Source: Terriglobia bacterium
Lineage (GTDB): Bacteria; Acidobacteriota; Terriglobia; Terriglobales; Acidobacteriaceae
NCBI GenBank assembly: GCA_020073665.1
Contig: JAIQEU010000008.1
Coordinates: forward strand, 29,748-69,747
DNA length: 40,000 bases
Direction of reading: 5' to 3'
Part shown: positions 1-24,211 of the stretch, one piece after another
How positions within the stretch are numbered: the first letter of the stretch is position 1
Layout of the letters: each line of letters begins with the position of its first letter
Translations under genes and position numbers: made by a program
Notes under the pieces: model-generated
The model's database searches: none
Seen by the model: only the letters and a program-made list of their open reading frames with translations
Told to the model about the DNA's origin: nothing

Positions 1-721
1 TGATCAGTGGTGTCCGCGCAGTCGAAGTGACGATCTGACAAGGGCGCAGCCACTCGCGGAGATGGTCTGGCTCACCGATGGTCGCGGAAAGTAGGGCGAT
101 TCGCGGCGGAGACGTTGTAGAAAGAAGCGAAGCGACCAGCAGTTCCAGCGTCGGTCCTCGGTGTGGGTCTCCGAGGAGGTGAGCTTCGTCAATCACGAGA
201 GACCCGATACTCGAAACCCATGCGCCGTTTGCGGGATTTCGCAGGATGGCATCGAGACGCTCAGGAGTCGCAATAATGATTTCGCCTTCAGACGGTGGAG
301 GTGATGAAGGGAACTCCCCATTCAGTCGGTAGTCTCCGGTCGAGATTCGAACCTTCGGGACCTGCTCTAATACGCCCTGACTCAGAGAGGTGAGAAGCTC
401 GGTCAGTTCGTCGGTCTTTTCTTGTGCCAGTGCCCTTAGCGGTTCAAGCAAAACTGCCCGTCGGCCCTGGAAAACGGCATCCAAGAGGATGATGTAGCCG
501 AGTAGACTCTTCCCACTATTTGTGGGAGCGCAAACGATTAGGTGCTGGCGTGATTCGAGGATCCGCGCTTGTTCGAGGGCGAGCTGTTGAACCGGTCGTA
601 GCTGGGAACTTCGTGTGAGCTTCTGGATGATCATGGACCAATGGTCCGAGACCTGCGAAATCCTTTCTCCTCCTTTCGCCGGGACAGGAGATCCGGAGCG
701 ACCGGCATCAAGCCGTCTCAT
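1..721 (-). CDS. SF2 DEAD/DEAH-box helicase (Ski2/Lhr-like), N-terminal part; C-terminus lies beyond the left window edge
   Basis: Absent from the ORF track because there is no stop in the window. My translation of the minus strand from ATG 721..719 gives MRRLDAGRSG...HLIVCAPTNSGKSLLG (motif I), LLEPLRALAQEK (Ia), ATPERLD (Ib), LVIDEAHLL (DEAH, motif II) and LLSATIG (III). The ATG overlaps the TGA of the upstream HTH gene (ATGA at 718-721). The listed 4..192 ORF is an off-frame shadow. Confidence 0.8.
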   Translation of the reverse strand, partial: MRRLDAGRSGSPVPAKGGERISQVSDHWSMIIQKLTRSSQLRPVQQLALEQARILESRQHLIVCAPTNSGKSLLGYIILLDAVFQGRRAVLLEPLRALAQEKTDELTELLTSLSQGVLEQVPKVRISTGDYRLNGEFPSSPPPSEGEIIIATPERLDAILRNPANGAWVSSIGSLVIDEAHLLGDPHRGPTLELLVASLLSTTSPPRIALLSATIGEPDHLREWLRPCQIVTSTARTPLI

Positions 722-1299
722 CTCTCCTCCAGCAGACGACGTAGGGCTGGGTAAAGCTCGCGGATTTCTTCCGTAGGCAGAGCGTCGATACGACGGCGCA
801 GCCAGCTCCGACGGTCTGTCATTGATACGGGTTCCGTTGACAAAAAGATCGGATCCTCGTGGAGATCAGTAATCGGCGGCAGGCCGAAGTACGAGACTAT
901 GTGGCGAAGCGTAGAAGGTTGCGGTTCGAAAGAACCGTTGAGCCAGCGAGAGATTGTTGTTGGGTCGACATTTAACTCGCCCGCAAGGGACTTCTTGCCC
1001 CCATGACCAAGTGACCCCAACAAAAATCGTAGGTTCTCCCGCAAAACGTTGTGCCCCGCATAGGCGAAACCTTGAAATCGCAAGTTTTCAGTCTCATCGG
1101 CCAACTCAAAGGCCCCTCCGATTTTGCGCAGGTCATTGTCTGAAACCTGCTCATCCGCCAATAGCCCTCTAACAAGCGACTTCGCCGTTTGGGGGTCGAG
1201 TGAAGCGCGCCTCGCGAGCCACGAAGTCCACTCAGATCGCGGGACATCGTTCCGATGCAACAGGTATCGCACATTCACCGAAACGTGGTCGCTCATCAA
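718..1299 (-). CDS. Tandem helix-turn-helix (XRE-like) DNA-binding protein, putative regulator of the island
   Basis: 193-aa ORF. The second half, KKSLAGELNVDPTTISRWLNGSFEPQPSTLRHIVSYFGL, fits the XRE/Cro-type HTH pattern. The first half (VNVRYLLHRNDVPRSEW...DPQTAKSLVRGLL) looks like a degenerate second copy. It is translationally coupled to the downstream helicase. Confidence 0.6.
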   Translation of the reverse strand: MMSDHVSVNVRYLLHRNDVPRSEWTSWLARRASLDPQTAKSLVRGLLADEQVSDNDLRKIGGAFELADETENLRFQGFAYAGHNVLRENLRFLLGSLGHGGKKSLAGELNVDPTTISRWLNGSFEPQPSTLRHIVSYFGLPPITDLHEDPIFLSTEPVSMTDRRSWLRRRIDALPTEEIRELYPALRRLLEER

Positions 1300-1315
1300 G
1301 TTCCCTTAGCGTGAC

Positions 1316-1368
1316 GCATATGTAACACTTAATAAATATGCATTTTAGCTTATAATTGCAAATTATAA
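1316..1368. promoter_or_regulatory. Two palindromes in the AT-rich divergent intergenic region; candidate operators or promoter elements
   Basis: GCATAT-N14-ATATGC lies at 1316-1341 and TTATAAT-TGCAA-ATTATAA at 1350-1368. TATAAT hexamers occur at 1351-1356 and 1364-1369. The region sits between the divergent HTH gene (start 1299, minus) and the helicase gene (start 1413, plus). Confidence 0.3.
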
Positions 1369-1412
1369 TAGACATTCTTATGCAGTATGCCGCATCTTGG
1401 AAGTGAGGAACA

Positions 1413-3809
1413 ATGCCTGAGCCGCTTGAGATCGAGTTGAATCCAGCCCAGCGGGAGATCGTCGAGAGGGGCCTCCTTACTAGCGGTTTCAGCTGCGTTC
1501 TTCAAATGCCCACCGGCGCCGGCAAAACATGGCTTGCGGAGCAGGCGATTCTTGCAACGCTCCGTAATGGGCAGCGTGCCGTCTACATTACCCCTCTCCG
1601 CGCACTCGCCAACGAATTGGTAGAGAAGTGGAGGCAAACGTTCGAGGAGTTCGAGGTAGGCGTCTTCACCGGGGAGTATGGCCAGCGCCAGGCGTACCCG
1701 GTCCCATTCTCCAGAGCTCGCTTACTCGTGATGACGCCTGAGCGCCTTGACGCCTGTACGCGTCACTGGCGCAGTCACTGGGGATGGCTACCAGATGTTG
1801 GCCTGCTCGTCGTTGACGAGTTGCATCTGCTTGGCGAAGCTAGGCGAGGACCACGACTTGAAGGGGCAATCCTGAGAGTCCGACGTCTGAATCCGTTCCT
1901 CCAGATCCTTGGACTCTCCGCGACTTTGGGCAATCGATCCGAATTGGCAGACTGGCTGGCCGGAGTGCATTACGAGAGCGACTGGCGCGCAATTCCCGTC
2001 TCATGGCGATGTGTCCGTTACGAGCGAGCCGCCGACAAGCCGCGGATCCTCCGCGAGCAAATCGAACGTTGCATCGCCGGCGGCGGGCAAAGCCTCGTTT
2101 TTGTCCAATCTCGACGCCGAGCAGAAGATCTGGCACTTGAACTCGCCGAATCTGGACTAGCAGCGGGGCATCACCATGCTGGCCTAGACTCCGAGGACCG
2201 GCGACGGCTGGAGCACGAGTATCGCTCCGGTGGCATCCGCGTCCTCGTCTCAACAGGCACCTTAGAGATGGGGCTCAACCTACCAGCCCGCCAGGTCATT
2301 CTTTATGATCTGCAGAGCTTCGATGGTAATGACTTCGTTCCCCTTTCGACCAATACCGTGTGGCAACGCGCTGGGAGAGCGGGTCGTCGTGGCCTCGATA
2401 CTCATGGTGAGGCTGTTCTACTTGCCCCGTCATGGGACCGGAGCGCGGAGCGATACGCAAGAGGGCGGTTCGATCGTGTGCTCTCAGGTCTATCCGACAA
2501 GCACTTCCTCGCAGAACAAGTGCTTGCGGAAGTCTGGAGCGGCCTCGCGAGGACCCGTTCACAACTCAAACGGGCGCTACAGGTGTCACTCGCGGCCCAC
2601 CAGAACCGACTTCCTTCAGTAGACCGAATTGTCGACGAGATGGTTGAAGCTGGGATGATGGTGGAGGTCAATCAAGATGGGTTGCGTAACACGCCTGTCC
2701 TCAAGGAGACGAGACTCGGACGTATTGCAGTCCGACAGATGCTGACCCCCTCGACAGTCGTATCGCTCGCAAAGGCGTTTGGTGCCAACCCCGAAAGGCC
2801 GGAACCTGCGTTTACCTTTCTCGATATCTTGCTGGTCTGCGCTCAGACCGACGACTGCGAACCCCTTATCCCTGTCGACTTCGAGGAACTGGAAGATCTA
2901 GGAGCGCGGCTCGTGCGTGAACACTCGACGTTACTCTCGGGTGCCCACCCAGTAGTGATGGAGAGATTCCAGACTAGGGGACGAAGACTGCTGGCAGTGA
3001 TCAAGACGGCTCTCATCGCCCGGCAGTGGACCCGCACAGGTGACACGGATCCCGTCGCAAAAAGCTTCGGATGCTATGCGTTCGAGGTGCGAAGACTCAG
3101 CGAGAGCTTCGGGAGGCTGCTTTCTGCCGCGACCGCCCTGGCGGCGCCGTCCGGTGAGAAGGATGCCAGTGACGATGAATACGTTCGGGCCCTGCTCGAC
3201 GAAGGTCCGCCCCTGCTCGAGCGCATCAAGGCCTTGGCATCAATGATCGGCAACGGTCTAGACGAACAGACCGTGACTCTCACTTTCATTCCCGGTCTTG
3301 GCGCGAAATTGGCGCGTCGTCTTCGGGACGCGGGAATTACCGACATCGAGGAGTTGGCTCTCGTCGAATCAGATGAGCTAGCGAAAGTGCGCGGTCTCTC
3401 TCGTGACCGGGCGAGTCGGTGGGTTGGCGAAGCAGCCAACCTGATCCGAAGAAGGTCGGCACTTACCTTCCGTGAATTCAGCACAAAGGTGCAGGCCTCG
3501 GTCTCCACTTGGCCAGCTAACATTGATCAGTATCGACTTCGGCGCGCACTTGATCTCACTGTGCGACGGAGGAGTGACTGTTATCTAGTCTCTGGTGGAC
3601 TGGAGCCCCATCGAGTGCGGATGGACTCCGTAAAGTTGTCCTGTGACTGCGCCGACTTCGCAAAAGGGGAGAACTGCAAGCATGTGCTCGCGACAAGCCT
3701 CAAGCGCCGAGATCCTGTTGTTGTTTCACTCGTTGAGCGGCTCAAGACCGTAGCGACTTCGAGCGAGCTCGACCTCTTTCAGCTTTGGTTTGATGGAGGA
3801 AGAAGATGA
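1413..3809 (+). CDS. Ski2/Hel308-like DExH helicase with C-terminal helix-hairpin-helix and SWIM zinc-finger domains
   Basis: 798 aa. Helicase motifs: QMPTGAGKTWLA (I), YITPLRALANE (Ia), VVDELHLL (II), GLSATLGN (III), VSTGTLEMGLNLP (V), WQRAGRAGRRG (VI). GLGAKLARRLRDAGITDIEELA is HhH-like. CDCADFAKGENCKHV matches the SWIM CxC..CxH pattern. A GAGGA Shine-Dalgarno precedes the ATG. Confidence 0.9.
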   Translation: MPEPLEIELNPAQREIVERGLLTSGFSCVLQMPTGAGKTWLAEQAILATLRNGQRAVYITPLRALANELVEKWRQTFEEFEVGVFTGEYGQRQAYPVPFSRARLLVMTPERLDACTRHWRSHWGWLPDVGLLVVDELHLLGEARRGPRLEGAILRVRRLNPFLQILGLSATLGNRSELADWLAGVHYESDWRAIPVSWRCVRYERAADKPRILREQIERCIAGGGQSLVFVQSRRRAEDLALELAESGLAAGHHHAGLDSEDRRRLEHEYRSGGIRVLVSTGTLEMGLNLPARQVILYDLQSFDGNDFVPLSTNTVWQRAGRAGRRGLDTHGEAVLLAPSWDRSAERYARGRFDRVLSGLSDKHFLAEQVLAEVWSGLARTRSQLKRALQVSLAAHQNRLPSVDRIVDEMVEAGMMVEVNQDGLRNTPVLKETRLGRIAVRQMLTPSTVVSLAKAFGANPERPEPAFTFLDILLVCAQTDDCEPLIPVDFEELEDLGARLVREHSTLLSGAHPVVMERFQTRGRRLLAVIKTALIARQWTRTGDTDPVAKSFGCYAFEVRRLSESFGRLLSAATALAAPSGEKDASDDEYVRALLDEGPPLLERIKALASMIGNGLDEQTVTLTFIPGLGAKLARRLRDAGITDIEELALVESDELAKVRGLSRDRASRWVGEAANLIRRRSALTFREFSTKVQASVSTWPANIDQYRLRRALDLTVRRRSDCYLVSGGLEPHRVRMDSVKLSCDCADFAKGENCKHVLATSLKRRDPVVVSLVERLKTVATSSELDLFQLWFDGGRR

Positions 3810-4717
3810 TGGTTTCGGGCAAGCTCCACACATCTCTCAATACTGCACACGGAGCCATCCGACTTCCTGCCTACGTGCCGGTCACCACCTTCGGAGCGAA
3901 ATACCCGTTGGACGACTTGGTGCGTCCATACCTACCTAGACTCGCACAGGCAGCAATGGTCAGCTTTCATTACGCTAGACAAATGACGGAGCGCCCTGCA
4001 CTGCCGCTTTTTGTGGACTCGGGAGGATTCGCCTCCCTCTTCCAGAATGCGACAGTACTAATGGTCGGCGGACTAGGTGTGCTCAAGACGAAGACGGAAG
4101 CCAGCACCGAGACGCTTCATCCTCGCGATGTGCTCGAATTTCAGGAGAAACATGCGGACGTCGCGTTTTCCCTCGACTTCCCGATTCCGCCATCGATGTC
4201 TTCGCACGAAGGTCGCCGACGCCTGGGCCTCACGGTAGCAAATGCCCGCTGGGCTATCGAAAACCGGCGACGTAAGGACATGCCAATCTTTGCCTGCGTA
4301 CAGGGTTGGGACGTCGACAGCTACGCTCAGTGTGTGGAAGCCTACGCCGGACTGCCTTTTGATGGAATAGCGATTGGGGGTCTAGTACCACGCGTGCACG
4401 ATCTCGCCAACGTGCTACGGATCGTTAAGGCCGTTCGTGCCGTAGTGCCGAACAAGCCATTGCACGTGTTCGGTCTTGGTAAACCGGGCATCGTCGAGGT
4501 TCTCTTCAAACACGGCGTGCACTCGGTGGATTCGAGTTCGTATGTGAAACTTGCAGCCGACGGCAGGCTCTGGGGGCACCCCACTATGAAACTTGAAGAT
4601 GCGTCTCCCGCTGAACGACTCAACTTGGCCCTCTGCAATCTTGCTACAGCAGCCCAACGAGCTCTGCCGCTTTCAACTTCGCACCTTTTATTCAGTTCTC
4701 GATTGTGGGAGCAGTAG
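3806..4717 (+). CDS. Short TGT-family transglycosylase paralog (DpdA/ArcTGT-like catalytic core, no Zn-binding tail)
   Basis: 303 aa. All TGT core motifs are present in order: LFVDSGGFASLF (cf. bacterial TGT DSGGFQ), AFSLDFPIPP, GIAIGGLVP, HVFGLGKP, HSVDSSSY (nucleophile-Asp region). No CxCxxC...H motif follows. The start overlaps the helicase stop (ATGA at 3806-3809). Confidence 0.7.
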   Translation: MMVSGKLHTSLNTAHGAIRLPAYVPVTTFGAKYPLDDLVRPYLPRLAQAAMVSFHYARQMTERPALPLFVDSGGFASLFQNATVLMVGGLGVLKTKTEASTETLHPRDVLEFQEKHADVAFSLDFPIPPSMSSHEGRRRLGLTVANARWAIENRRRKDMPIFACVQGWDVDSYAQCVEAYAGLPFDGIAIGGLVPRVHDLANVLRIVKAVRAVVPNKPLHVFGLGKPGIVEVLFKHGVHSVDSSSYVKLAADGRLWGHPTMKLEDASPAERLNLALCNLATAAQRALPLSTSHLLFSSRLWEQ

Positions 4718-4749: not shown

Positions 4750-5769
4750 CTACGGATAGCGCAAAGGAACGCCTTTGCCTCCATTGGGCGTCGGGCAATC
4801 CCATCGAAAGTCACAGATCCTGCAGTCCTGATCGCTGATGCACGCTGAATCCGCCGCTGGCCAATGGTTCAACAATCGAGCTTCCTCGATGGCGGCTACC
4901 GTCGTGGTGAATTCACTCATCGCGGCGGCGATGTCGGCGGAACCCAAACCATTAGAGACGCTGATCTCAAGTGTAGCGTTCACGGGCCGAGAAGTTGGGC
5001 AAGTCGGACCGTCAAGCTCACTGAGCAGGTAAATTACAACCTGTTTCGGCAGGATTCCATGCTTCAGCTCGTAGAGCTTTGCATACACCTGCATCTGAAA
5101 TCTATACGTCTGCAAGTCTGAAGGCGTCATGACCACACGGCTCGTTCCTTTGTAGTCCCAGATCTCGCAGTCGCCAGGCCCTGAGCCACCGTTGGGGTCG
5201 TCAACTAACAGATCCACGACCCCGTGCATTATGTGCGTGGTCTGGTCTGCTTGCAGCCGATGCTCCGTATCGCGCACCCTTGGATAGAGAGTCGGTCCTT
5301 CTAGCTTGTCGAAGTACTGCAGAAGCCGGATGACCCGAACCCGCTGATCCCTTGTAATGGCTCTGATGCCCTGGCTTTTGAGGCCGTTCTCGACTTCCAA
5401 GAAGTAACGAACGATCTCGCTTGGGGGGGGAGGCGGGGGGCTACCTGCCTTAAACGCAGCGTCTGCTGAAGTCAGGTAGCTTTCCAGGTCGGAGTCAGGG
5501 ACGACGATACCACCACCGGGCAACGTGCCTTTGGTGTGCGGGTCAGTTACACCATGAAAATGACCGTGGCACCGATCCAAGACCTGATGCAACACCGTTC
5601 CGAAGTACAGCTGGGTCTGGTGTGCCGGTGCGTAATCATGAACGTGCACTGAGCCGTATTGACGAGGGCACTTTCTGAACCCGACGATATCTTGGGTGAC
5701 GCTGTACCGTCGTTTAACAATCGGACCTGGAAGTGGGGTGACTACAACTCCAGAAAATGGTCCTGGCAT
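4750..5769 (-). CDS. Cas4/AddB-like PD-(D/E)XK nuclease with 4-Cys Fe-S cluster signature
   Basis: 339 aa. N-terminal YSVTQDIVGFRKCPRQY. Nuclease motifs GVVDLLV, EIWDYKGT and QMQVYAKLY (QxxxY). C-terminal CRICDFRWDC (C-x2-C-x5-C). A GAGGT SD lies 8 nt after the UvrD stop. Confidence 0.75.
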   Translation of the reverse strand: MPGPFSGVVVTPLPGPIVKRRYSVTQDIVGFRKCPRQYGSVHVHDYAPAHQTQLYFGTVLHQVLDRCHGHFHGVTDPHTKGTLPGGGIVVPDSDLESYLTSADAAFKAGSPPPPPPSEIVRYFLEVENGLKSQGIRAITRDQRVRVIRLLQYFDKLEGPTLYPRVRDTEHRLQADQTTHIMHGVVDLLVDDPNGGSGPGDCEIWDYKGTSRVVMTPSDLQTYRFQMQVYAKLYELKHGILPKQVVIYLLSELDGPTCPTSRPVNATLEISVSNGLGSADIAAAMSEFTTTVAAIEEARLLNHWPAADSACISDQDCRICDFRWDCPTPNGGKGVPLRYP

Positions 5770-5777: not shown

Positions 5778-7982
5778 TCAGATGATTTGGGTACTTCGAC
5801 GAAAAGCTGCATAATCGCGACTGGGTACAGCCACGTGATTCTTCAACTGCGCCGGAGTGGCAACTAGGATCAGCGCGTATTCGGCACGGGAGTACGCAAC
5901 GTAGAGTAGCCGTATGTCATCCTCTATTGCAAGATCCGCCGGCGGTTGCGCGCTCCGCGGGTACAAGTCGTTCCGAAATGGTGCCAGCTCATGCTCCAAT
6001 CGCTGAGCTGCGCCCACTCTGCCCTTATCACCTAGCTGCGCGACGATCACGAACGGAAACTCGAGCCCCTTGGATTGATGGATCGTCATTACGGGCAGAT
6101 ATCCCTGAGGGACGATGACGTCCTCATCTTCGTCGTCATCAATTCCTGCATCAACCAGATAACTTACAAACGTCTGGAAGAAACGCCCCATAAACGCCGG
6201 GTCTATCGACGTCCCTGTGGAATCGGCGCGAAGTGAATCCAAGTTAAAGCTATGGTAGCTGTCAAACAGCCTCGTGAGTTTACCAAGCCGCAAGTTCCTT
6301 GCAGGATCCTGTCGCCAAGTTCGGAACGGCTCCAGCGAAAGGATGCGGAAAAGAATCTCATGAAGAGTGACGTCCAGGAACTTGTCGGGCTTCGCGGCAC
6401 ACTCTTGCTGGAGTGCGACATTGCTCTTCGAAACATAATCGTCAACTTGGTGCCGCACGGTGGGGATGGCCGCGAGCGCCTGATCCAGTGCAGTGATCCA
6501 CGCATTCACGTCGGCGACCCAGTCGGGTGTGTTGCCGTTCGGCAAGCGAATGGTGGTGAACGTATGGTTCCAGTCGATGGTATGGACGAGTACAGCGAGG
6601 AGGCACTGAATCTCCTCGGCCTCCATGAAAGTCTTGGAGCGTGGGTTGTAGACAGGTATCCCTCGAGCGTTAAACGCGGTCAGGTAGGGGCCTGCATTGC
6701 CAGGCGAATCCTTGGCGCTCCGGACAAGAAGCACACATTGACTGTAGTCGGAGATCACACCATCGGCCATTAGGTGATCCCGAAGCAGTAAGGCGACCGC
6801 ATCCGGCAGGTGAGCCGCTCTCGCTCGCGTCAGCCAGCTAACAGCCGGATACGTGCCGGTGATCGCCGACTTCCCGATCACAGGCAACTTGCCTGGTGCG
6901 CGAACGCCGGGACGCCTCATCTCGACGAACGAGTCAATGTAGGCGTTGAAGAAACCAACGATATTCGAATGTGAGCGGTAGTTGTCAACGAGTTGGACCG
7001 GGGTTGGGGACACTCCGAATCCAGCATTGCACGCCTTGTCGAAGTTGACCATGCCGGCCACCGTCCCGCCACGGAACCGATACAAGGCCTGGTCATCATC
7101 CCCGACAACCGTCAGGTTATGTGGCGAACGTCCGGCTAGAGCGAGGTAGATCCGCTCCTGCAGCGGGTTGGTGTCTTGATACTCGTCCACCAGAGTATAG
7201 TTGAGGCAGGGTGTCTTCCCCACGACCCCATCCAGGAGTTGTCGACCTGTTGGTTGCTGCAAGAATTCCAAGAATCGCTGTTGCAGGTGAGCAAAATCAC
7301 AACGGTATCGGCTGTGCAACGCCTGAACGTATTGCTCATAAAGATGAGCAAGCACCGACCAATATCCGCCTGCGCTCTTCATTTGGGCGATATCGACCAC
7401 GTCCTCTACGATGTGGTTGAACAACTCTGCGCCCGCCTTGCCGCGTTTCCATTGGCTCGGAACGTAGTTCTTATCGCGCCAGTCCGGAACCACATAGTCG
7501 AAAAATCGCCAGAAGGCAACGTCCGGATGCTTGGTGATTTGGGAATAAAGGTACACGAAGATGTGCTGTTCGACCTGATCTAACAACCGAACGTTCTGGT
7601 ATCCCGGGTATCGGTACTCCTGAAGAATGTCATTGCACAGGCTATGAATGGTTCCGATTCGCAGATCCGACACGTCAATAGCAGTCAAGCTTGGCTCTGC
7701 AGTACGAAGCGCCGCCATGTAGGAGGCTAGACGATCGGCCAAGTTGCGAGCCGCTTTTACAGTGAAAGTGGTCATCAGGACCGATCGAGGATCGACCCCA
7801 TCCACGCAGAGCAGACGCAAGGCTCGCGTGACCAAGACCTCACTTTTGCCCGAGCCGGGTCCGGCAATCAGCCAGAGGGGACCGGATGGATGGTCCACCG
7901 CCGTGCGCTGGCTGCCGTTGAGTGGATACCCCCGGCCAGATGCGCCGTCAAGAATCTGATGAAAGCCCGCAAGCGGGATCAC
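5778..7982 (-). CDS. UvrD/Rep/PcrA-family SF1 helicase
   Basis: 734 aa. LIAGPGSGKSEVL (Walker A), LVDEYQDTNPLQ (II), VGDDDQALYRFRGG (III), TIHQSKGLEFPFVIV, LLYVAYSRAEYALILV (VI). The GTG start overlaps the stop of the upstream 716-aa gene (GTGA at 7979-7982). Confidence 0.9.
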   Translation of the reverse strand: MIPLAGFHQILDGASGRGYPLNGSQRTAVDHPSGPLWLIAGPGSGKSEVLVTRALRLLCVDGVDPRSVLMTTFTVKAARNLADRLASYMAALRTAEPSLTAIDVSDLRIGTIHSLCNDILQEYRYPGYQNVRLLDQVEQHIFVYLYSQITKHPDVAFWRFFDYVVPDWRDKNYVPSQWKRGKAGAELFNHIVEDVVDIAQMKSAGGYWSVLAHLYEQYVQALHSRYRCDFAHLQQRFLEFLQQPTGRQLLDGVVGKTPCLNYTLVDEYQDTNPLQERIYLALAGRSPHNLTVVGDDDQALYRFRGGTVAGMVNFDKACNAGFGVSPTPVQLVDNYRSHSNIVGFFNAYIDSFVEMRRPGVRAPGKLPVIGKSAITGTYPAVSWLTRARAAHLPDAVALLLRDHLMADGVISDYSQCVLLVRSAKDSPGNAGPYLTAFNARGIPVYNPRSKTFMEAEEIQCLLAVLVHTIDWNHTFTTIRLPNGNTPDWVADVNAWITALDQALAAIPTVRHQVDDYVSKSNVALQQECAAKPDKFLDVTLHEILFRILSLEPFRTWRQDPARNLRLGKLTRLFDSYHSFNLDSLRADSTGTSIDPAFMGRFFQTFVSYLVDAGIDDDEDEDVIVPQGYLPVMTIHQSKGLEFPFVIVAQLGDKGRVGAAQRLEHELAPFRNDLYPRSAQPPADLAIEDDIRLLYVAYSRAEYALILVATPAQLKNHVAVPSRDYAAFRRSTQII

Positions 7983-10129
7983 TTCGATACTCCTTTAGCT
8001 CCTTTAAGCGGCTCAAGGGCATCGGTCAGTGCATCTAATTCAGCGATTTCGAAGATGCCAGAGTACCCAGCTTCGAGTAGATTTATCTTGCTGTCAACGG
8101 GCCAGTCGCCGTCAACCACCAAGAAATGTTGGCCAGGATTTGATTCAGCTCCAAAACACGAGTCAACTTGACAACGCAAGTGGACAGACCTCAACCGAGA
8201 GGCTAGCTCTTTGACCTTGTGATCTATATTCTTGGCCCCAATAACAGCCTGAGTTTGTATGATCGCCCCAGTCATTCCGTCCTGCCCCGTCGTTTCCGTT
8301 GTCAATGCTGCCCGGCTCCATCCGCGCTTTACAGATAGGCCATTGAATGCCCCGCGCAGGGTCGGTCCCTTCTTGAGGGAGGGTAGGCTGCGCAGCAGTA
8401 GGAACGAGATCGGTTCAAGATCTGGAGCAGCAATGATTCTCATAGCCTTCTTGTACCGGTAGTTCACCTCGACCACAACTGGGTCAAGCGCCTTTCGTTT
8501 ACCAATCGCTTCCCAAACGCACTCCGCGAAGAGGGGCCAGATCGCTTCGTAGAAGTCAGATTCAGCAAGCTCAGTGCCGTTGGAGAAAAACTGGCCGACT
8601 GGGACGCCGGCGATCAAGTGACTCGTCAGCGCGCCGAGGTTGTTCATATAGGCGTAGGGTCTCAGCGAGTGCCCAAAAACGGCAGCGAACTTGGCGGGCA
8701 ACGCGGTCGTGATATGTTGCATGCTACCCAAGTCGTAGAACGCGAACAATACGTCTGGTGGCCAATTGTGCATGTCCTCCACGACTGACTGATGCGCTGG
8801 ACGTCGGCCGGGATCGAGGAGGTCCTCAGTCAACCTCGTGATGAAGGTTGCTTTGTCAGTGAGCCCAACGAAGCGTGATCCAACATACTCGACCTTCCGC
8901 CTAATCCGCTCCGGGTCGGCCAAATCTGCAAGTACCCAGTGCATCGAGTAAGCGGTGCGGTAGCTCGTGAAAAGGTCCTCTACCGCGCGCCGGAGGCTGG
9001 CAAGGTCTTCAGATTTTACGTAGCGAAGGCCCAATATGAACTGCTTTAGGTCTGGATTCCATTCCGCGTGCTCAAGACCCGCCGCGCCGCTCAGGAGGTA
9101 AACGGGCTTACGCTTAACCATCTGAACGGGTACGCTCGCCAGCTGGTTCCGCAAGGCGTCGATTTCCGCGTCGTCGACGCTTTTTGTTGCACCGAGTATG
9201 CCGCGCAAGGCCTTCCAAGAAAACCTAGGATTCGAGGTTAGAATCGACCAAAGAGCTGCATCAGGGTCGACACGGGATCCAAACATTCGGGCTACCAACT
9301 CACGGATTATGAACGCCTGCTGAAGCCCTTTCCTGTAACGTGTTTCCGTGGGATGAAGTGCAACAGATCTCTTACGTCCTTCCCAGCAAACGTCTTGGAG
9401 CTTCGTTATGGCGGCGGGGGTATATCGAGGACTTGGGCCGCTCGCGAGAGCTGTTTTGAGCAGCCTGGCTGCCCGGTCCACTCCTTTACGAACTGACTTA
9501 CTCTTCTTGTAAAGCGCCTCCCAAACAGAGTTGTAGACCTGGCGACGCTTCCTGGCGCTCCCCGGTACCGCTTCCGGAAGCGCAGAAGCGAATTCCTCTA
9601 TTGGCAAGTATTCCTGCGGAAACAGGATGCTTGAGTCAAAAGAAACGGCTAGCATCGATCCGTTTGCCGGGCTCCAGCCGTGTAACGGAATCAGTTCCTG
9701 CGAATCAACTACTCGACGTGGTTGTTGGTCCGGGTCTAACGCAACAAAGACGAGATTTATAGAAAGAAAATCTCGGCCAAACTGTGATTTATATTCGAAA
9801 TGGTCCTCCACCGTGCGCCAAAATTTTCTGTGGGAGTCTCTGGGGTTGCTCCAGTGAGTCACATGAAGACAGGCGACTGGGTGGCCTCCGTCTAGCACAA
9901 AGAAGTCAGGACTGTACCAAGGACCATATGGCAACCGTTCCCGCTCCGAGAAGGCATGGCACTCAACTGAGTGAAGGCAGATGCTCTTATCGACGTGACA
10001 CAATGCCTCCTGATGTTTTTCATATAGGTACTGGCGTCCAGAGCCGTCCGTCCACTGATCCCGATACCCCAGCTGTCTTAGCAGGAACTCGCCAAAGGCC
10101 TCGTAGGATCTCCCAGTGACGTCAGCCAC
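7979..10129 (-). CDS. Large hypothetical protein (716 aa), function unknown; weak nuclease-fold hints only
   Basis: Long uninterrupted ORF, translationally coupled to the UvrD-like gene. I recognise no NTPase, methylase or ParB motif. N-terminal SPDFFVLDGG...ACLHVTHW and C-terminal IIQTQAVIGAKNIDHKVKE are only vaguely restriction-endonuclease-like. Confidence 0.75.
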   Translation of the reverse strand: MADVTGRSYEAFGEFLLRQLGYRDQWTDGSGRQYLYEKHQEALCHVDKSICLHSVECHAFSERERLPYGPWYSPDFFVLDGGHPVACLHVTHWSNPRDSHRKFWRTVEDHFEYKSQFGRDFLSINLVFVALDPDQQPRRVVDSQELIPLHGWSPANGSMLAVSFDSSILFPQEYLPIEEFASALPEAVPGSARKRRQVYNSVWEALYKKSKSVRKGVDRAARLLKTALASGPSPRYTPAAITKLQDVCWEGRKRSVALHPTETRYRKGLQQAFIIRELVARMFGSRVDPDAALWSILTSNPRFSWKALRGILGATKSVDDAEIDALRNQLASVPVQMVKRKPVYLLSGAAGLEHAEWNPDLKQFILGLRYVKSEDLASLRRAVEDLFTSYRTAYSMHWVLADLADPERIRRKVEYVGSRFVGLTDKATFITRLTEDLLDPGRRPAHQSVVEDMHNWPPDVLFAFYDLGSMQHITTALPAKFAAVFGHSLRPYAYMNNLGALTSHLIAGVPVGQFFSNGTELAESDFYEAIWPLFAECVWEAIGKRKALDPVVVEVNYRYKKAMRIIAAPDLEPISFLLLRSLPSLKKGPTLRGAFNGLSVKRGWSRAALTTETTGQDGMTGAIIQTQAVIGAKNIDHKVKELASRLRSVHLRCQVDSCFGAESNPGQHFLVVDGDWPVDSKINLLEAGYSGIFEIAELDALTDALEPLKGAKGVSK

Positions 10130-10561: not shown

Positions 10562-12373
10562 TTACCGGGCATTGGTCCCTCGGAGGTCGTCGAAATCTAA
10601 GACCTGTGCGGGTAGCGCGATGTCTCGAAGGCTCGACGACAACAGCAGTTGGCCCTTATCAAGAACCTGTAACTCCTGCGCAAACCCGCCGATATCCGAG
10701 GATGCCGTCCGCACAGCCTCTCGACGTTCATCGGCATTGCCGAGAGCCATGGTGATCTGCGTATTGAGTTGTGTTAAGACACCAGGATCGATCTCAGACA
10801 CTTGTTGACTGACGATGCCTAGGCCGATGCCGAACTTCCGCCCCTGCCTACTGATGTCGCGGAAGATACTACCAAAGCGCATCCGCGCCGGGTTGAGCAC
10901 GCTCGGCGCCTCCTCGACCAAGATATGAACCAGAGGTAGCTCGTCCGGCGTTCGAACGCGTTCACCATCGAGATATGGGAGCTCGCCGCGGTCGAGGTGG
11001 GCAACGAGCGCCTGAGCGAGGCTCCGTTGGCCTACGCGCCCGTTCGCTTCATCGACTCCGAGGGCCACGAGGATCTCACTGCGGAGTCGGTCGGCGGAAT
11101 CTGCGAGACGAAGTGCCCGGCGAAGCGCGAAGAGCGAGCGCGCAACAACGGTGTTCAGGAGAAACTGCTCCAGCTCGCCAAGAAGAGTGGTATCGACCAC
11201 AAGAACACGGCCACGCTCAAGAGCGCACAGGATATCCGGCAGAAGTGAATCGTAAGTAAATCCCATTTCTGGATCGAAGCGTGAAACCAACCTGGTGTTG
11301 CCGTGCGTCAAGAACCCAAGCCGTCGCTCCACGGCCGAGATTGTGCCGGGCAAGTACTCAGTGTTGGCCTCACAGTCGCCGCCGACGGCACCTGAAAAAA
11401 GCTGTCCCACCCACCGTTCCCCATGTTCCGCGAAGAGCTGGCGCGCGAAGGCGATTTGCTGCTCGGAGAAATCCAGGATGCTGACAAGGTCATCAGGCGT
11501 GACTTCTGCCCTCGAGAGGCGTACGCGCGCCTCAAGGGGATCTTCGAGACCATCGCGAGCGGTGAGATAGTAGAAGGGCGCGACGAGGTCGGTGCGTTCG
11601 GCGTCTGAATAGGCACGCACGATGCCCCGGACACCGTCCGCGCCGCCGACTGCGGCGTGCCATGTGCGGAACTCATCGTGAGGATCGATGGCGAAGACCG
11701 AAGCCCTCGGCCCGATCGTGACGCCGGCATGGACTGCGCGGTTGTGCTCAAGCACCCCGTCGATCAGGACCATGATCAGGTTGCTCTTGCCGCAACCGGT
11801 GCGGCCAAAGACACCGATGTGGTGGGACAGGGCAGCCACAGGGAGGCGAACGGGGACAGCCAGCAGAGGCCGCTCACCCGCGAGCAGGTGGCCTATTACG
11901 AGCCCTGTGTCACCGAGCTGTGTCCGAAGAAGCTCGAACACCACTTGCCCTGATTCGGACCGGTCGGGGTCGACTCGGAACACGTCTGTCAGGTGCTGTG
12001 GGAGTCTCCGTGGTCGGTTGAACGACCACCCCTGCCGATCGCTTACATACTCTGCGTAGCCAAGGACCAAGCCTCGCAGCTCCACGAGCTGCTCCTCGGA
12101 CAAGTCCTCGGCGAAGTACGAGTCCGGCATTGTGAGCTTGTTGCGCGCCACATCGCTCATCTCCAACGTGCGGTTGAGGATGTTGGCATACTCGGTGGCG
12201 CGGAAGACGTAGACCCGGTCAGGCCCCCGCCGACACGGGAGGAGGAAGAGGTCACCGATGGCGACGTCCCCGTTGCGAGCGACAACCGTCAGTTGTGATG
12301 TGCTGCTCTCGGCTAGGACACCGAACCGCGGCCCCAGTGCTCGGACGAGTGCTTCGAGTGTTGCCAAACTCAT
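10562..12373 (-). CDS. herA: HerA-like (FtsK/HerA superfamily, DUF87-type) hexameric ATPase
   Basis: 603 aa. N-terminal HAS-barrel-like segment (VVARNGDVAIGDLFLLPC...VYVFRATEY). Walker A GVFGRTGCGKSN. Walker B LVHILVEEAPSV. GIGLGIVSQQVSEID. An AAAGGGGA SD lies after the nurA-like stop. Confidence 0.85.
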   Translation of the reverse strand: MSLATLEALVRALGPRFGVLAESSTSQLTVVARNGDVAIGDLFLLPCRRGPDRVYVFRATEYANILNRTLEMSDVARNKLTMPDSYFAEDLSEEQLVELRGLVLGYAEYVSDRQGWSFNRPRRLPQHLTDVFRVDPDRSESGQVVFELLRTQLGDTGLVIGHLLAGERPLLAVPVRLPVAALSHHIGVFGRTGCGKSNLIMVLIDGVLEHNRAVHAGVTIGPRASVFAIDPHDEFRTWHAAVGGADGVRGIVRAYSDAERTDLVAPFYYLTARDGLEDPLEARVRLSRAEVTPDDLVSILDFSEQQIAFARQLFAEHGERWVGQLFSGAVGGDCEANTEYLPGTISAVERRLGFLTHGNTRLVSRFDPEMGFTYDSLLPDILCALERGRVLVVDTTLLGELEQFLLNTVVARSLFALRRALRLADSADRLRSEILVALGVDEANGRVGQRSLAQALVAHLDRGELPYLDGERVRTPDELPLVHILVEEAPSVLNPARMRFGSIFRDISRQGRKFGIGLGIVSQQVSEIDPGVLTQLNTQITMALGNADERREAVRTASSDIGGFAQELQVLDKGQLLLSSSLRDIALPAQVLDFDDLRGTNAR

Positions 12374-12384: not shown

Positions 12385-13596
12385 TCAGTGTCCGGTGGGT
12401 TGGGAGGCGTCCCGGAAGAGCGAGCGCTTGAGCCCGGCCCTCACGGCCTCGTCGATGAGCTGTTTCCGAAGCACCACACGCTCGGACTCTGTCAGTGATG
12501 CCCGGTCATGACCGGCCTTTACGGGATACGGATACCCGTAGCAGCGTTGGTCATGAGCACAGTAATCAAGGGACTGGAAGAGCTGTCTTACCTGCTCCTC
12601 GTCGCGCAGGTGTTCATCCCAGTACTTCGCGTCTAGGTCGACCCGCAGCACGGGCACGTTCCGATGAAATCGAACCAGGTAAGTTACCGCACCAGCCGGA
12701 GGCACTCGCCGGCCCTCCGTCGAGGGCAGGGCCCATCCCTCAACCTCCTCGGATGGGATCTTCAAATACCAGTGCTCAGGTGCCTCGGTCGCTCCTGTAC
12801 CGGCAACATCACGGACGGCATCTTCGATGAACCCTATTCCTGGGAGCCCGTGCGACTTCGACAGGCCAACGAGAACAACACCACGCTGTCGTGCCTCGAC
12901 ACAGCAGAGACGCTTCAGGTGCTCGTAGAACAAGCTCACGTCTCGACGCGTGACCAGCGGAAGTGTGAGAGTGCTGTCAAAAACGAGGATCCGACGAACC
13001 CCTGCCTCCTGAGGTGCGCGCCGCAGAAGGCGCAGGGCCATTGCCAACTCGCCCGTCGTCCGTAGCTGGATAGCTACATTCGAGGAGTCCGATGCGTTGG
13101 GCCGAATCATCTGCTCGACGAGCTGGTCGATCGGAGTGTGTCGTCCGCTGAACGCTTGCTTTAGCTCCTTGTAGTCTGAGGCACTCACCACCTCACGCAC
13201 TGCCATTCCACACAGCCGGGCGAATGCCGCGTTCCACGTATCAGAGCGGCGCTGTTCCGACTCGGGGATCCAGAATGCATCGAACAAGGCTGGAAGCCCA
13301 AGGTCTATCTCTCTTAGCCCATGTACGTTATCAGTCGTGTAGACGGATCCTTGGGCCACCGTCAGGTAGACGAATGAGTCTCCATAGGCCAGCGCAGGGA
13401 AGTCGCCCGAACCGTCGACGCCCGCGCATTGCAGGGCTTCTGACGTCGTCGTGTGTTCAAAGAAGTGCACGGACTCGCGCAATCGTCGCGCAGCATCATC
13501 TCCGAGCTTGGCCGACCCCTCCCATGCGCTCATTTCGTTGGCTACCTCAGCCAGTCGCGAGCGGACCGCGCTCCGCAGGTGGAGATCGAACTTCAC
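12385..13596 (-). CDS. nurA: NurA-like nuclease partner of HerA
   Basis: The ORF track gives 12385..13782, but its first 62 codons overlap the upstream gene. A GTG at 13596..13594 overlaps that gene's TGA (GTGA) and is preceded by GGAGGA. I take this as the start (about 403 aa). It contains a CAGVDGSGDF (DGS) motif typical of NurA and sits immediately upstream of herA-like. Confidence 0.6.
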   Translation of the reverse strand: MKFDLHLRSAVRSRLAEVANEMSAWEGSAKLGDDAARRLRESVHFFEHTTTSEALQCAGVDGSGDFPALAYGDSFVYLTVAQGSVYTTDNVHGLREIDLGLPALFDAFWIPESEQRRSDTWNAAFARLCGMAVREVVSASDYKELKQAFSGRHTPIDQLVEQMIRPNASDSSNVAIQLRTTGELAMALRLLRRAPQEAGVRRILVFDSTLTLPLVTRRDVSLFYEHLKRLCCVEARQRGVVLVGLSKSHGLPGIGFIEDAVRDVAGTGATEAPEHWYLKIPSEEVEGWALPSTEGRRVPPAGAVTYLVRFHRNVPVLRVDLDAKYWDEHLRDEEQVRQLFQSLDYCAHDQRCYGYPYPVKAGHDRASLTESERVVLRKQLIDEAVRAGLKRSLFRDASQPTGH

Positions 13597-15620: not shown

Positions 15621-15688
15621 TGTTGGTCTATTTGGACATTTGAACAAGGTCTACAACACAAGGGCACAAACCTGCCCTAGATCACAAT

Positions 15689-16531
15689 TCACGCGCAAGT
15701 TTGTTCTTCAACAGCCAAGTCCTTGGCAACTGTGCCTTCGGGACGCACCCATTCCACACTCGCAAAAGCACTGTGGTTATGGATGCTTTCTTGGTTCAAT
15801 GCATCGATCCGGAACCAGGCGATTCGCAAATCATTTCTTAGCGCAAGAGCGACATTGCGCACCATGTCTTCGACGAAAACTGGATTATCAAACGCCTGCA
15901 TTGTCACGTGTCGTTCATCCGCACGTTTGAGAAGAGGATACACGGGAGCAGACGCAGACTGCTCCGCAATATCGATCAGCTCCTCAAACCAAACCAAAGC
16001 GAAGTTGTTTTCCGGATCACGAACGGTTTGCACCTCAATCGTAATGTAGCCACGCTGATTGTGGGCTCCGTAGTCGCTGATGGCCTTACTACAAGGGCAA
16101 AGACTCGTGACGGGCACTCGAACTCCAAAGACGAACTCGTCCTTCCCACCGTTAACCGCAGCATCAAAGGAGCATTCGTAGTCCATTAGTGCACTTGCAC
16201 CACTGACCGGGGCTCGGCGCTCCAGGAAGTAGGGAAACACGAGATGAATATGCGCACTCTCCGCATCAAGCTTCTTTCGCAGATCTCGGAGGATGTTGGG
16301 AACGGTACGCATTGTAATCTCGCCACGGTGCTCATTCAGAACTTCGATGAAGCGACTCATGTGAGTTCCCTTGAATTCGTGCGGCAGATTAACCGACATC
16401 TTCAGGACCGCCACGGTGTGCTGCTTTTGGTGTTCGCGATCAAGGACGACTATTGGGTACCTGAGCCCAGACACCCCGACCTTATCCAGAGCCACCTCAC
16501 GGCTATCACGTCTACCTTGGACATCTTCCAT
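15689..16531 (-). CDS. folE2: GTP cyclohydrolase I type 2 (FolE2/MptA family)
   Basis: 280 aa. LDKVGVSGLRYPIVVLD...VLKMSVNLPHEFKGTHMSRFIEVLNEH is the characteristic FolE2 N-terminal signature. The start shares one nt with the queD stop (TGATG). Confidence 0.9.
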   Translation of the reverse strand: MEDVQGRRDSREVALDKVGVSGLRYPIVVLDREHQKQHTVAVLKMSVNLPHEFKGTHMSRFIEVLNEHRGEITMRTVPNILRDLRKKLDAESAHIHLVFPYFLERRAPVSGASALMDYECSFDAAVNGGKDEFVFGVRVPVTSLCPCSKAISDYGAHNQRGYITIEVQTVRDPENNFALVWFEELIDIAEQSASAPVYPLLKRADERHVTMQAFDNPVFVEDMVRNVALALRNDLRIAWFRIDALNQESIHNHSAFASVEWVRPEGTVAKDLAVEEQTCA

Positions 16532-16896
16532 CAGTTCTCATCCTCTCCAGCGTAAATACATCCGCTGCTGCAGGTCTCACGGACGACAACGCAGCTCAGC
16601 AAAGGCAACGCCGACGTCAACCGCTTCCATATCCATCTTGACAAGTTCTCACTCGTAGGATTCGCCAGACCATCGATTTCATTGAGGTAGCTATGGTCCA
16701 ACTCATCATGTAATGGCTGGAACGCTTTCTTAATCTCCCCGAAATCTATCACCCATCCGACTGAATCTCTTACAGATCCACGCACGTGAATTTCGACACG
16801 AAATGAGTGCCCATGGAGTCGGCCACATTTGTGACCAGGAGGAAGATTAGGCAAGCGATGAGCCGCTTCGATCGTGAACTCCTTGAAGATTTCCAT
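16531..16896 (-). CDS. queD: 6-carboxy-5,6,7,8-tetrahydropterin synthase
   Basis: 121 aa. FTIEAAHRLPNLPPGHKCGRLHGHSFRVEIHV matches the QueD/PTPS His/Cys pattern. Confidence 0.9.
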   Translation of the reverse strand: MEIFKEFTIEAAHRLPNLPPGHKCGRLHGHSFRVEIHVRGSVRDSVGWVIDFGEIKKAFQPLHDELDHSYLNEIDGLANPTSENLSRWIWKRLTSALPLLSCVVVRETCSSGCIYAGEDEN

Positions 16897-16911
16897 CGAT
16901 CGTCCCTCCTT

Positions 16912-18266: not shown

Positions 18267-18508
18267 CCGACTCCGTTAAAGAGCTTCATTTGATCCCGGT
18301 CGGGTCCCTGAATTGGCTCCAATCGGTTTGCGAATGCACGGACTGCCTCAAATTCTGCAGCTGTAAAGACAGTCATCTTTCGGAACCGATGACCAAGTGG
18401 GATGTCCCCAGTCTTTCTCCATCGCCAGAGCGTCGTGCGCGACACCGAGAGCGATTCCTCGATTTCGCCTACCGTGAAGTATTGCGTTCCTTCAATTAGG
18501 ACTGGCAT
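18263..18508 (-). CDS. Small MerR/excisionase-type (AlpA/HTH_17-like) DNA-binding protein, first gene of the que operon
   Basis: 81 aa. [27 protein letters not shown] is a typical excisionase-family HTH. Its stop overlaps the queC start by 4 nt. Confidence 0.7.
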
Positions 18509-18584
18509 GCGATCTAGGCTTCAAGTATACGTCACAATCTGTTGCGATGCGTTCCAAGTGTTCCATTATGTTACATTGCGTTGC

Positions 18585-19446: not shown

Positions 19447-19586
19447 CGATCTCCTCCTCGACGGCAAGTGACAGCTGTGCCGCTTTGCTCTTTGACTCTA
19501 CCGAGACGCGAATCCGTGGAGCTACAGGTCCAGGAAGCGATACGCCCCTAACCGACTAGCAAAACAGAACCGTAACTTGACCAAGA

Positions 19587-24208: not shown

Positions 24209-24211
24209 TCG

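Follow-up and report, generated by a model that had tools for sequence, protein, structure and literature searches.

Organization of the HEL1–sTGT gene pair

The subject of this study is a pair of overlapping genes, coding for a helicase (HEL1) and for a short, zinc-less protein of the tRNA-guanine transglycosylase (TGT) superfamily (sTGT), that lie in a 7-deazaguanine island of a Terriglobia bacterium (assembly GCA_020073665.1, contig JAIQEU010000008.1, positions 29,748 to 69,747, forward strand; this whole stretch of 40,000 nt is hereafter called the window). HEL1 (1413..3809, + strand) encodes a 798-aa Ski2/Hel308-type DExH helicase, identified by Pfam, NCBIfam and PDB sequence searches, and sTGT (3806..4717, + strand) encodes a protein of 303 aa that is translationally coupled to it. 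Both open reading frames (ORFs), together with the overlap of the sTGT ATG and the HEL1 stop codon reported in the initial annotation, were confirmed on the junction sequence, GGAGGAAGAAGATGATG, in which the HEL1 TGA stop (3807–3809) overlaps the first sTGT ATG (3806) by 4 nt and a second ATG (3809), where the database gene call starts (302 aa), by 1 nt. A GGAGG Shine–Dalgarno-like element lies directly 5′ of these start codons.

Upstream of HEL1, an AT-rich intergenic region (1300..1412) separates it from a divergently transcribed gene for a helix-turn-helix (HTH) regulator, HTH193. The only promoter-like site between the two genes, TTAATA-16-TATAAT (1329–1356, + strand), has its −10-like hexamer covered by a perfect palindrome, TTATAATT-gca-AATTATAA (1350–1368), a candidate operator to which the HTH193 protein may bind. 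A search for a conserved operator in the HTH–HEL1 intergenic regions of related loci found AT-richness and some locus-specific palindromes, and no common sequence. No intrinsic terminator was found downstream of sTGT.

Fold and active site of sTGT

The sTGT protein passes the general TGT models with PF01702 (83.5 bits, cutoff 26.3) and TIGR00449 (82.1 bits, cutoff 47.6). Its AlphaFold2 (AF2) model, of high predicted quality (pLDDT 89.9, pTM 0.88), has the TIM-barrel, (β/α)8, of TGT enzymes, and is matched by Foldseek to bacterial TGT (bTGT), human QTRT1 and archaeosine TGT (ArcTGT) with a probability of 1.0 and query-normalised TM scores of 0.65–0.74. All catalytic-core motifs quoted in the initial annotation are present, namely DSGGF (71–75), LDFP (123–126), GGL (191–193), GLG (223–225) and VDSSSY (241–246). 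When a profile of 24 homologs was aligned with solved TGTs, Asp71 fell on Asp102 of the Zymomonas mobilis enzyme (general acid/base), Asp124 on Asp156 of the same enzyme and Asp130 of ArcTGT (base recognition), Gln166 on Gln203, Gly191–Gly192–Leu193 on Gly229–Gly230–Leu231, and Asp242 on the nucleophile, Asp280 in Z. mobilis and Asp249 in ArcTGT. Counted over 120 homologs (cluster representatives), Asp71, Asp124, Gln166 and Gly191–Gly192 are invariant (120/120) and Asp242 is kept in 119. Judged from this conservation, sTGT looks catalytically competent, which speaks against the possibility, considered from the outset, that the short TGT is a dead enzyme.

The second part of the same claim, the loss of the zinc subdomain, also holds. 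The zinc motif CxCxxC was sought in sTGT and its 120 homologs and occurs in none of them (0/120); the window protein has just three scattered Cys residues, and the chain ends 60–74 residues past the nucleophile Asp in the sTGT family (about 60 in the window protein). In bacterial DpdA (bDpdA), the large Ins8 insertion bears the zinc site (Gedara 2023, PMC10164549); the Ins8 region is missing from sTGT, the alignment ending at the barrel. With regard to the base-binding pocket, sTGT has GGLVP (GGLVPR), LDFP and DSSSY where ArcTGT has GGVVP, LDIP and DSASY, and the corresponding glycine motif is GGMVP in DpdA from Salmonella Montevideo and GGLAVGE in the preQ1 enzyme bTGT. By its motifs, the sTGT pocket thus appears to resemble that of the preQ0 enzymes ArcTGT and DpdA, and not that of bTGT.

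Position of sTGT in the TGT superfamily

In a neighbour-joining tree of 154 core columns (500 bootstraps), bDpdA and the haloarchaeal long form make up a clade with 99–100% support that leaves sTGT outside, and sTGT forms a lineage of its own with its Deinococcus relatives. The deep position of this lineage is as sister to bDpdA in 54% of the bootstraps and to the haloarchaeal short TGTs in 37%; grouping with bTGT or with ArcTGT alone was seen in 0/500. The core identity of sTGT to every other TGT group is 26–33%, and the two TGTs of the window, sTGT and the DpdA described below, are about 27% identical in the core, bearing out the earlier view that two diverged TGTs share one 7-deazaguanine island. 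The model scores agree with this isolated position: sTGT reaches 60.5 bits with the DpdA model NF041059 (cutoff 200) and 19.7 bits with PF23859 (cutoff 27), 51.9 bits with the bacterial tRNA-guanine(34) model TIGR00430 (cutoff 306.75) and 73.4 bits with the archaeosine tRNA-guanine(15) model TIGR00432 (cutoff 350). All three equivalog cutoffs are therefore missed. By phylogeny, sTGT is not an enzyme of the tRNA type, so that a placement among tRNA-specific enzymes, named in the initial annotation as counting against it, did not come about. The C-terminal tRNA-binding and PUA domains of ArcTGT are also missing.

An affiliation of sTGT with the phage enzymes DpdA1–4 was considered and rejected, its viral structural matches being weaker than the cellular ones (BFVD, TM 0.42–0.61). 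A tblastn search of phage records gave four weak TGT-like matches (23–25% identity) and detected no phage DpdA; the single match inspected in its annotated context was an ordinary bacterial-type tgt–yajC.

HEL1 is a Hel308-like helicase with a SWIM finger

HEL1 matches four Pfam families above their cutoffs, DEAD (100 bits), Helicase_C (68 bits), HHH_5 (44 bits, residues 622–674) and SWIM (24.5 bits, residues 724–763), in keeping with the initial assignment of 1413..3809 to a DExH helicase with helix-hairpin-helix (HhH) and SWIM modules. Its motif II is DELH, and the CxC...CxH zinc finger of the SWIM module reads SCDCADFAKGENCKH; the helicase motifs and the SWIM Cys and His residues are kept across 20 homologs. 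The closest solved structures in the PDB sequence search are those of Archaeoglobus fulgidus Hel308 (233 bits), ASCC3 and Brr2, and HEL1 has the architecture of Hel308, with two RecA lobes, the ratchet domain 4 (a weak Helicase_dom4_arc match at residues 472–587) and a C-terminal HhH. The best NCBIfam models are likewise those of archaeal Hel308, with scores below the equivalog cutoffs (NF002654, 338 versus 887; NF040935, 208 versus 1200). By these scores HEL1 is Hel308-like and not a Hel308 ortholog; moreover, Hel308 lacks a SWIM finger, whereas HEL1 carries one. In PADLOC, the top matches are BrxHI and Hachiman HamB (1e-39 to 1e-37), limited to the helicase core, as are the weak matches to DpdF (79 bits) and DpdE (25 bits).

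These features bear on an explanation in which sTGT would be an RNA- or tRNA-modifying TGT and its Ski2-like partner would remodel RNA, with the defence-island location being incidental or reflecting a translation-level defence. The public annotation indeed labels sTGT a tRNA-guanine transglycosylase, its motif details are like those of ArcTGT, and the Ski2-like superfamily includes the RNA helicases Brr2, Mtr4 and Ski2. This explanation is nevertheless highly improbable in view of the low scores with the ArcTGT and bTGT models (73 versus 350 and 52 versus 307), the bootstrap results above and the loss of the zinc, PUA and C-terminal tRNA-binding domains; the closest prokaryotic relatives of HEL1 are the Hel308 DNA helicases, HEL1 itself has HhH and SWIM modules, and the neighbouring genes code for DNA nucleases, DNA helicases, DpdA and plasmid replication proteins.

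Conserved linkage, fusions and minimal modules

Relatives of sTGT were gathered by scanning one genome of each species with an alignment, which gave 28 loci, and metagenomic and plasmid loci were added afterwards; as a single-sequence query against the reference genomes, sTGT found no match. These loci span about ten phyla, including Acidobacteriota, Proteobacteria, Myxococcota, Bacteroidota, Cyanobacteria, Verrucomicrobiota, Chloroflexota and Desulfobacterota, and an exhaustive search of 1.84 billion representatives yielded 81 members of the sTGT family at E ≤ 1e-30. Where at least 2.5 kb of upstream sequence is available (n = 29), HEL1 lies directly upstream of sTGT at all loci but one (28/29), and the two genes overlap or are less than 50 nt apart in 20 of the 23 pairs listed.

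Furthermore, eight database representatives are single-chain fusions of a helicase and a TGT, in both domain orders. One of them, P0258 (1004 aa), has the order DEAD–Helicase_C–HHH_5–SWIM–TGT, and the other seven start with TGT–DEAD, followed by Helicase_C in 6/7, HHH_5 in four and SWIM in one; a plasmid gene of Deinococcus gobiensis is also a TGT–DEAD fusion. These fusions are the strongest evidence for the linkage of helicase and TGT, and together with the gene order they answer the concern that this linkage might not be conserved.

The module also occurs in reduced forms. HEL1–sTGT occurs by itself in mobile-element contexts at two loci (L008, L025). On plasmid pNSMS101 of Nostoc sp. MS1 (L033), an orphan sTGT (19971–20906, 55% identical) occurs with no helicase. 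In Deinococcus ficus, the order is UvrD, a hypothetical gene, an sTGT-like gene and a helicase, with a plasmid replication gene adjoining. Such carriage of orphan and minimal modules on mobile elements is the behaviour of modification genes, not of toxic effectors. The orphan gene of L033 adjoins dnaB, and genes for orphan DNA methyltransferases, AlkB and DUF1392 abound around it, surroundings that look like a plasmid self-protection or anti-restriction region.

Several loci show further peculiarities, three of them (L010, L024 and L026) being disrupted copies. A 2-kb insertion with two ORFs separates HEL1 from sTGT in L010 (7951–9986), HEL1 and HEL2 (see below) are fragmented in L026, and a DDE_3 transposase lies within the island of L024 (15074–16159). 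L019 and L024 were examined as islands in which sTGT would be the sole TGT, and were set aside, the former being ambiguous and the latter disrupted by an insertion sequence. In the marine gammaproteobacterial loci L027 (~10900–11400) and L028 (4570–5043), a Vut_1/YhhQ-type membrane protein, of the queuosine-precursor transporter family, is encoded directly 3′ of sTGT.

A four-gene core

Unbiased ORF clustering across all loci revealed that HEL1–sTGT is one half of a four-gene core composed of HEL2, the HTH regulator, HEL1 and sTGT. The simple helicase–TGT pair initially proposed is thus conserved as a pair, whereas the conserved unit includes the second helicase and the regulator. The core is arranged as HEL2(−) HTH(−) / HEL1(+) sTGT(+), and on cyanobacterial plasmids as HTH(−) / HEL1, sTGT, HEL2 with overlapping genes. 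In the window, HEL2 (1..721, − strand) is cut by the left edge and comprises the N-terminal ~240 residues of another helicase of the Hel308-like DEAD/DExH kind; when 12 HEL2 homologs from related loci were compared by tblastn with positions 1–1400, they showed 46–68% identity over residues 1–240, the L002 homolog being 68% identical. The full-length L002 homolog has the DEAD and Helicase_C domains, and the relatives are of ~780 aa. HEL2 is co-oriented with HTH193 and present in 23/35 loci. HTH193 (718..1299, − strand) encodes an Xre-type HTH regulator (HTH_3, 27 bits, cutoff 23; HTH_19 below the cutoff at residues 88–142), a homolog of which is divergent from HEL1 also in 23 of the 35 loci.

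The surrounding 7-deazaguanine island

The core belongs to an island of ~18 kb whose remaining genes are all on the − strand. Farthest from the core are four preQ0 genes, each above the curated NCBIfam cutoff: FolE2 (15689..16531), QueD (16531..16896), QueE (16912..17550) and QueC (17547..18266). They are preceded by a gene (13593..15647) for a 684-aa fusion of DpdC (DUF6884) and DpdA, with 436 bits to NF041059 (cutoff 200) and 34.5 bits to PF21818. Its DpdC portion (residues 13–180) matches PADLOC DpdC with E = 6e-9, and its DpdA portion matches S. Montevideo DpdA (7UI4) with 267 bits and retains the zinc motif CNCSIC...H. On these matches, the 684-aa protein is assigned as a bona fide DpdA, the canonical zinc-containing DNA-guanine transglycosylase of the island. 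DpdC–DpdA adjoins the HEL1–sTGT module also on Nostoc and Picosynechococcus plasmids. Co-occurrence with DpdA, HerA, NurA and Que genes was judged within 10 kb at the 18 loci with wide flanks, and in 11 of them at least one of these genes is within reach.

Between DpdC–DpdA and the core lie genes for a HerA/FtsK-type translocase ATPase (10562..12373; PF01935, 56.6 bits; PADLOC HerA models), homologs of which, 52–83% identical, occur in 12 loci, and for its partner, a NurA-like nuclease (12385..13596, ~403 aa; the mechanical ORF reaches 13782). The NurA-like protein itself gives no direct Pfam match, and 16 of its 25 homologs match Pfam NurA (best E = 1e-7); its AF2 model (pLDDT 88.6) has as top Foldseek hit chain G of TdpAB (8wfd), followed by NurA (2ygk) and HerA–NurA complexes. 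TdpABC is a phosphorothioate restriction–modification system in which the mark is made by TdpC and in turn modulates the HerA/NurA-like TdpAB machinery (PMC12914056, citing An et al. 2025). HerA being partnered with the NurA-like nuclease, and TdpAB being the best structural match of the latter, HerA–NurA is more likely a restriction effector than a helper of DpdA. HerA was for this reason rejected as the ATPase partner of DpdA. The earlier proposal that each TGT is paired with a different ATPase therefore stands for sTGT, paired with HEL1, and not for DpdA.

Immediately 3′ of sTGT, and convergent with it, are genes for a Cas4/AddB-like PD-(D/E)XK nuclease (4750..5769; PF12705, 52.7 bits; a C-terminal Cys cluster) and a UvrD/PcrA-type SF1 helicase (5778..7982; PF00580, 170 bits; PF13361). 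UvrD is found in 14/35 loci, the nuclease recurring alongside it in related loci. The next gene (7979..10129) codes for a 716-aa protein, a divergent member of the c5_590 family, which comes after UvrD in 11 related loci; the protein has no match in Pfam, NCBIfam, PADLOC or PDB, and its similarity to the L009 member of c5_590 is collinear at the N- and C-termini (E = 2e-6 and 0.002).

The island is bordered by a serine recombinase gene (18868..19467). To its right (22595–33376), an 851-aa SNF2-like helicase (25514..28069), small phage-like ORFs and a tyrosine integrase-like ORF (32240..33376) suggest an adjacent integrated mobile element. The GC content is 0.52–0.54 over positions 14000–20000, covering DpdA and the preQ0 genes, and 0.56–0.62 on either side, a dip which hints at an island pieced together as a mosaic from modules of differing history. 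Two related metagenomic contigs encode Nmad2 and Nmad3, which are nucleotide-modification-associated domains, and a DEAD helicase a few kb upstream of HEL2–HTH–HEL1–sTGT (L001 2073–3700, L043 1670–2997); these genes could represent a neighbouring system or an accessory module.

Absence of DpdB and recurrence of a second TGT

Searches of the island proteins with PADLOC, NCBIfam and Pfam found no DpdB, DndB or DGQHR protein, and the sole DGQHR-coding DNA match in the window is antisense to an unrelated gene. Gedara et al. 2023 (PMC10164549) proposed that the ATPase of DpdB might open DNA locally in the manner of a helicase. With HerA being taken by NurA, the DpdA of the island is left with no dedicated ATPase. 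In islands with a fusion DpdA that do have DndB/DGQHR (Allocoleopsis PCC 7113 and Scytonema NIES-4073; L045, L047), there is no second TGT, and the Microcoleus/Allocoleopsis PCC 7113 cluster, having DpdB and no sTGT, was rejected as an island of the same type. Conversely, a plasmid of Paenibacillus sp. 37 (L046 14989–22843) encodes a long DpdA-type TGT, a 307-aa TGT, a P-loop NTPase, DpdJ and DpdK with no DpdB, and haloarchaeal plasmids (L035, L036; 6991–13058) encode a long DpdA-type TGT, a 344-aa TGT and a BREX-type ATPase, again with no DpdB. The short TGTs of Paenibacillus and haloarchaea retain CxCxxC; they are of other lineages, with identities of no more than 27%. In this small sample, the pattern of gene occurrence suggests that a second short TGT with an NTPase may substitute for DpdB. 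The GATOR-GC survey of dpd islands demanded dpdA and dpdB together, and island types without DpdB would therefore be missed by it.

Discussion

The results described above point to HEL1–sTGT as a DNA guanine/preQ0 transglycosylase that is driven by its helicase, works for the modification side of the island and possibly substitutes for DpdB, a reading that we favour with about even confidence. For the division of labour conjectured in the initial annotation (different contexts, insertion versus removal, writer versus sensor), the sequence data favour the modification side only modestly. Its support comes from the invariance of the catalytic site, a pocket of the preQ0 type, the fusions, the complementarity with DpdB and the orphan and minimal modules, and it agrees with the suggestion of Gedara et al. 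that a helicase-like step may be required. We infer DNA rather than tRNA to be the substrate from the Hel308-type partners with their HhH and SWIM modules, from a neighbourhood of nuclease and DNA helicase genes, and from the lack of any PUA or zinc tRNA-binding module. A tie of sTGT to 7-deazaguanine would follow from the preQ0 genes of the island, from the Vut_1/YhhQ transporter genes in L027 and L028, and from the adjoining DpdC–DpdA on plasmids.

In the predicted mechanism, HEL1 and sTGT would work together with HEL2 as one machine under the control of the HTH regulator. The helicase would move 3′–5′ on DNA, opening or presenting it, with its HhH and SWIM modules keeping hold of the DNA. 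The sTGT protein would then flip a guanine out and displace it through Asp242, with Asp71 serving as the general acid/base, and would install preQ0 by means of its ArcTGT/DpdA-like pocket. The module may accordingly be a second writer with a context of its own, such as unwound, single-stranded or replicating DNA, or an ATP-driven replacement of DpdB. In either case, DpdC–DpdA would be the classical writer, with FolE2, QueD, QueE and QueC supplying preQ0, and the TdpAB-like HerA–NurA and UvrD–PD-(D/E)XK are likely to be the nucleolytic effectors.

Several points weigh against this proposal. With a complete DpdA already in the island, the need for a second writer is not obvious. In the window, sTGT lies in the half of the island that carries the helicases and nucleases, as part of a divergent operon pair under HTH control, a layout that resembles, by analogy, the controller-regulated restriction side of restriction–modification systems. 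The argument from the preQ0 pocket is built on a comparison of motifs, and the mutual exclusion of DpdB and a second TGT on two cases with DpdB and three lineages without it. DpdA, HerA, NurA and Que genes are all outside 10 kb in 7 of the 18 wide-flank loci, in one of which (L001) a NurA homolog apparently lies farther along the same contig. Finally, the nucleophile Asp is replaced by Asn (VNSSSY) in one representative of the family, P0037 (L044 10001–11020). At the same locus, DpdA is apparently split into ORFs of 407 aa and 241 aa, and both peculiarities could be due to decay of the island or to an error of long-read assembly.

The layout raises the question of whether sTGT acts instead on the restriction side, as a sensor or effector. 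The helicases would feed incoming DNA to sTGT, which would attempt guanine displacement at target sites; sites carrying 7-deazaguanine would be refractory, and unmodified foreign sites would be turned into covalent enzyme–DNA intermediates or abasic sites, lesions that would stall replication or recruit HerA–NurA and UvrD–PD-(D/E)XK. Guanine exchange by TGTs is reversible, whereas the insertion of a 7-deazaguanine is irreversible, and this irreversibility would give a built-in discrimination of self from non-self. In the window, sTGT neighbours helicase and nuclease genes and converges with the PD-(D/E)XK–UvrD operon, while DpdA sits with the preQ0 genes; the divergent HTH regulator, with a palindrome over the −10-like element, is reminiscent of the controller proteins encoded near restriction genes; and HEL1 resembles BrxHI and HamB, helicases of restriction-like systems, the latter being also among its PDB matches. 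Against all this, the pocket is of the preQ0 type, and an active TGT in a preQ0-making cell would be expected to write rather than to damage; the orphan sTGT of Nostoc MS1 and the modules lacking DpdA (L008, L025 and the Deinococcus plasmids) would be expected to be self-toxic; and the second TGT is complementary with DpdB, a modification protein. Moreover, we know of no precedent for a TGT acting as a hydrolase or a suicide crosslinker. In favour of the restriction-side reading, antiviral DNA glycosylases have by now been described (bioRxiv 10.1101/2025.10.29.685425). On balance, we think a role as sensor or effector unlikely. Its fuller form, in which HEL1–sTGT–HEL2 would be the self/non-self interrogator of the island and the adducts or abasic sites would license degradation by HerA–NurA and UvrD–PD-(D/E)XK, is in our judgement quite improbable; if true, transglycosylase chemistry would for the first time be seen to serve as a restriction sensor/effector.

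The presence of two TGTs in the island also invites a comparison with eukaryotes. TGTs act as dimers, in eukaryotes with a paralog as the second subunit. It is thus conceivable that sTGT is an accessory subunit that heterodimerises with DpdC–DpdA as QTRT2 does with QTRT1, sTGT positioning the helicase-delivered DNA and DpdA carrying out the catalysis. Structures of QTRT1 are among the matches of sTGT, pairs of a long and a short TGT recur in three unrelated island types, and dpdA adjoins the module on the cyanobacterial plasmids. We regard this arrangement as very doubtful, in that every catalytic residue is strictly conserved in sTGT, it is to helicases, and not to DpdA, that sTGT is tightly linked and fused, and the module is found with no DpdA nearby.

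The HEL1–sTGT family provides a natural experiment on how DpdA-type enzymes reach a guanine buried in the duplex and on what role the DpdB ATPase plays, being a TGT coupled, and in some cases fused, to true helicases in islands lacking DpdB. The module also defines a Dpd-like island type that is missed by surveys based on dpdA plus dpdB. A long DpdA has come to be paired with a short second TGT and an NTPase in at least three forms, the bacterial Hel308, Paenibacillus and haloarchaeal types. Cultured, transformable hosts carry the module on small plasmids (Picosynechococcus PCC 73109, on the 38-kb plasmid NZ_CP014001, and Nostoc NIES-3756), and the question of writer versus sensor is therefore directly testable.

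Comparison with known systems

The role proposed for HEL1–sTGT is worth comparing with those of other TGT enzymes and of the systems in which they occur. With bTGT, ArcTGT, bDpdA and phage DpdA1–4, sTGT shares the TIM-barrel, the three Asp residues and the Gln/GGL pocket, and the conserved residues imply that it would use the same double-displacement chemistry. It differs from all of them by the loss of the whole zinc subdomain, and scores below every equivalog cutoff. The RefSeq gene names of the pair are generic, PADLOC and NCBIfam have no specific models for HEL1–sTGT genes, and we found no published description of a module composed of a Hel308–SWIM helicase and a short TGT, although it may be depicted, unlabelled, in Thiaville 2016 or in a 2016 review. 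The HEL1–sTGT island is thus apparently a widespread and undescribed variant of Dpd that lacks DpdB.

Like the Dpd system of S. Montevideo (dpdA–K; Thiaville 2016; Yuan 2018; Gedara 2023, PMC10164549), a 7-deazaguanine restriction–modification system, the window island combines preQ0 genes, DpdA, a DpdC-type domain, helicases and nucleases. However, the Montevideo system has DpdB, whereas the window island lacks it and has DpdC fused to DpdA. NCBIfam and PADLOC searches of the island for DpdD, G, H, I, J and K found none of them; instead of the Montevideo DpdD–K, the island has two Hel308-like helicases, the zinc-less TGT, UvrD with PD-(D/E)XK, HerA–NurA and the c5_590-family protein. In TdpABC (An et al. 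2025; PDB 8WFD; cited in PMC12914056), a single-gene writer stands beside a HerA-like/NurA-like complex, as in the window island. The mark in that system is a phosphorothioate, whereas that of the window island would be a 7-deazaguanine base, and the likeness concerns HerA–NurA, not HEL1–sTGT.

Hachiman HamA–HamB and BREX BrxHI provide examples of defence-associated Ski2/Hel308/Lhr-like helicases, to which HEL1 is similar. Their partners are the HamA nuclease or BREX components, whereas the partner of HEL1 is an enzyme of the TGT fold, and HEL1 has the SWIM finger in addition. In the BRC system (HerA, GNAT, TGT; PMC12839542), TGT homologs are likewise found in composite defence islands together with NTPases. 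Identity of this system with that of the window was rejected, the window having no PglZ, BrxC, STAND or GNAT and BRC having no Hel308 helicases; more generally, the TGT partners in BRC, haloarchaea and Paenibacillus are STAND, BREX-type or P-loop NTPases, whereas the partner of sTGT is of the Hel308 type. Altogether, the chemistry and the overall logic of Dpd systems are already known, and what is new in the HEL1–sTGT island is a distinct, zinc-less TGT lineage.

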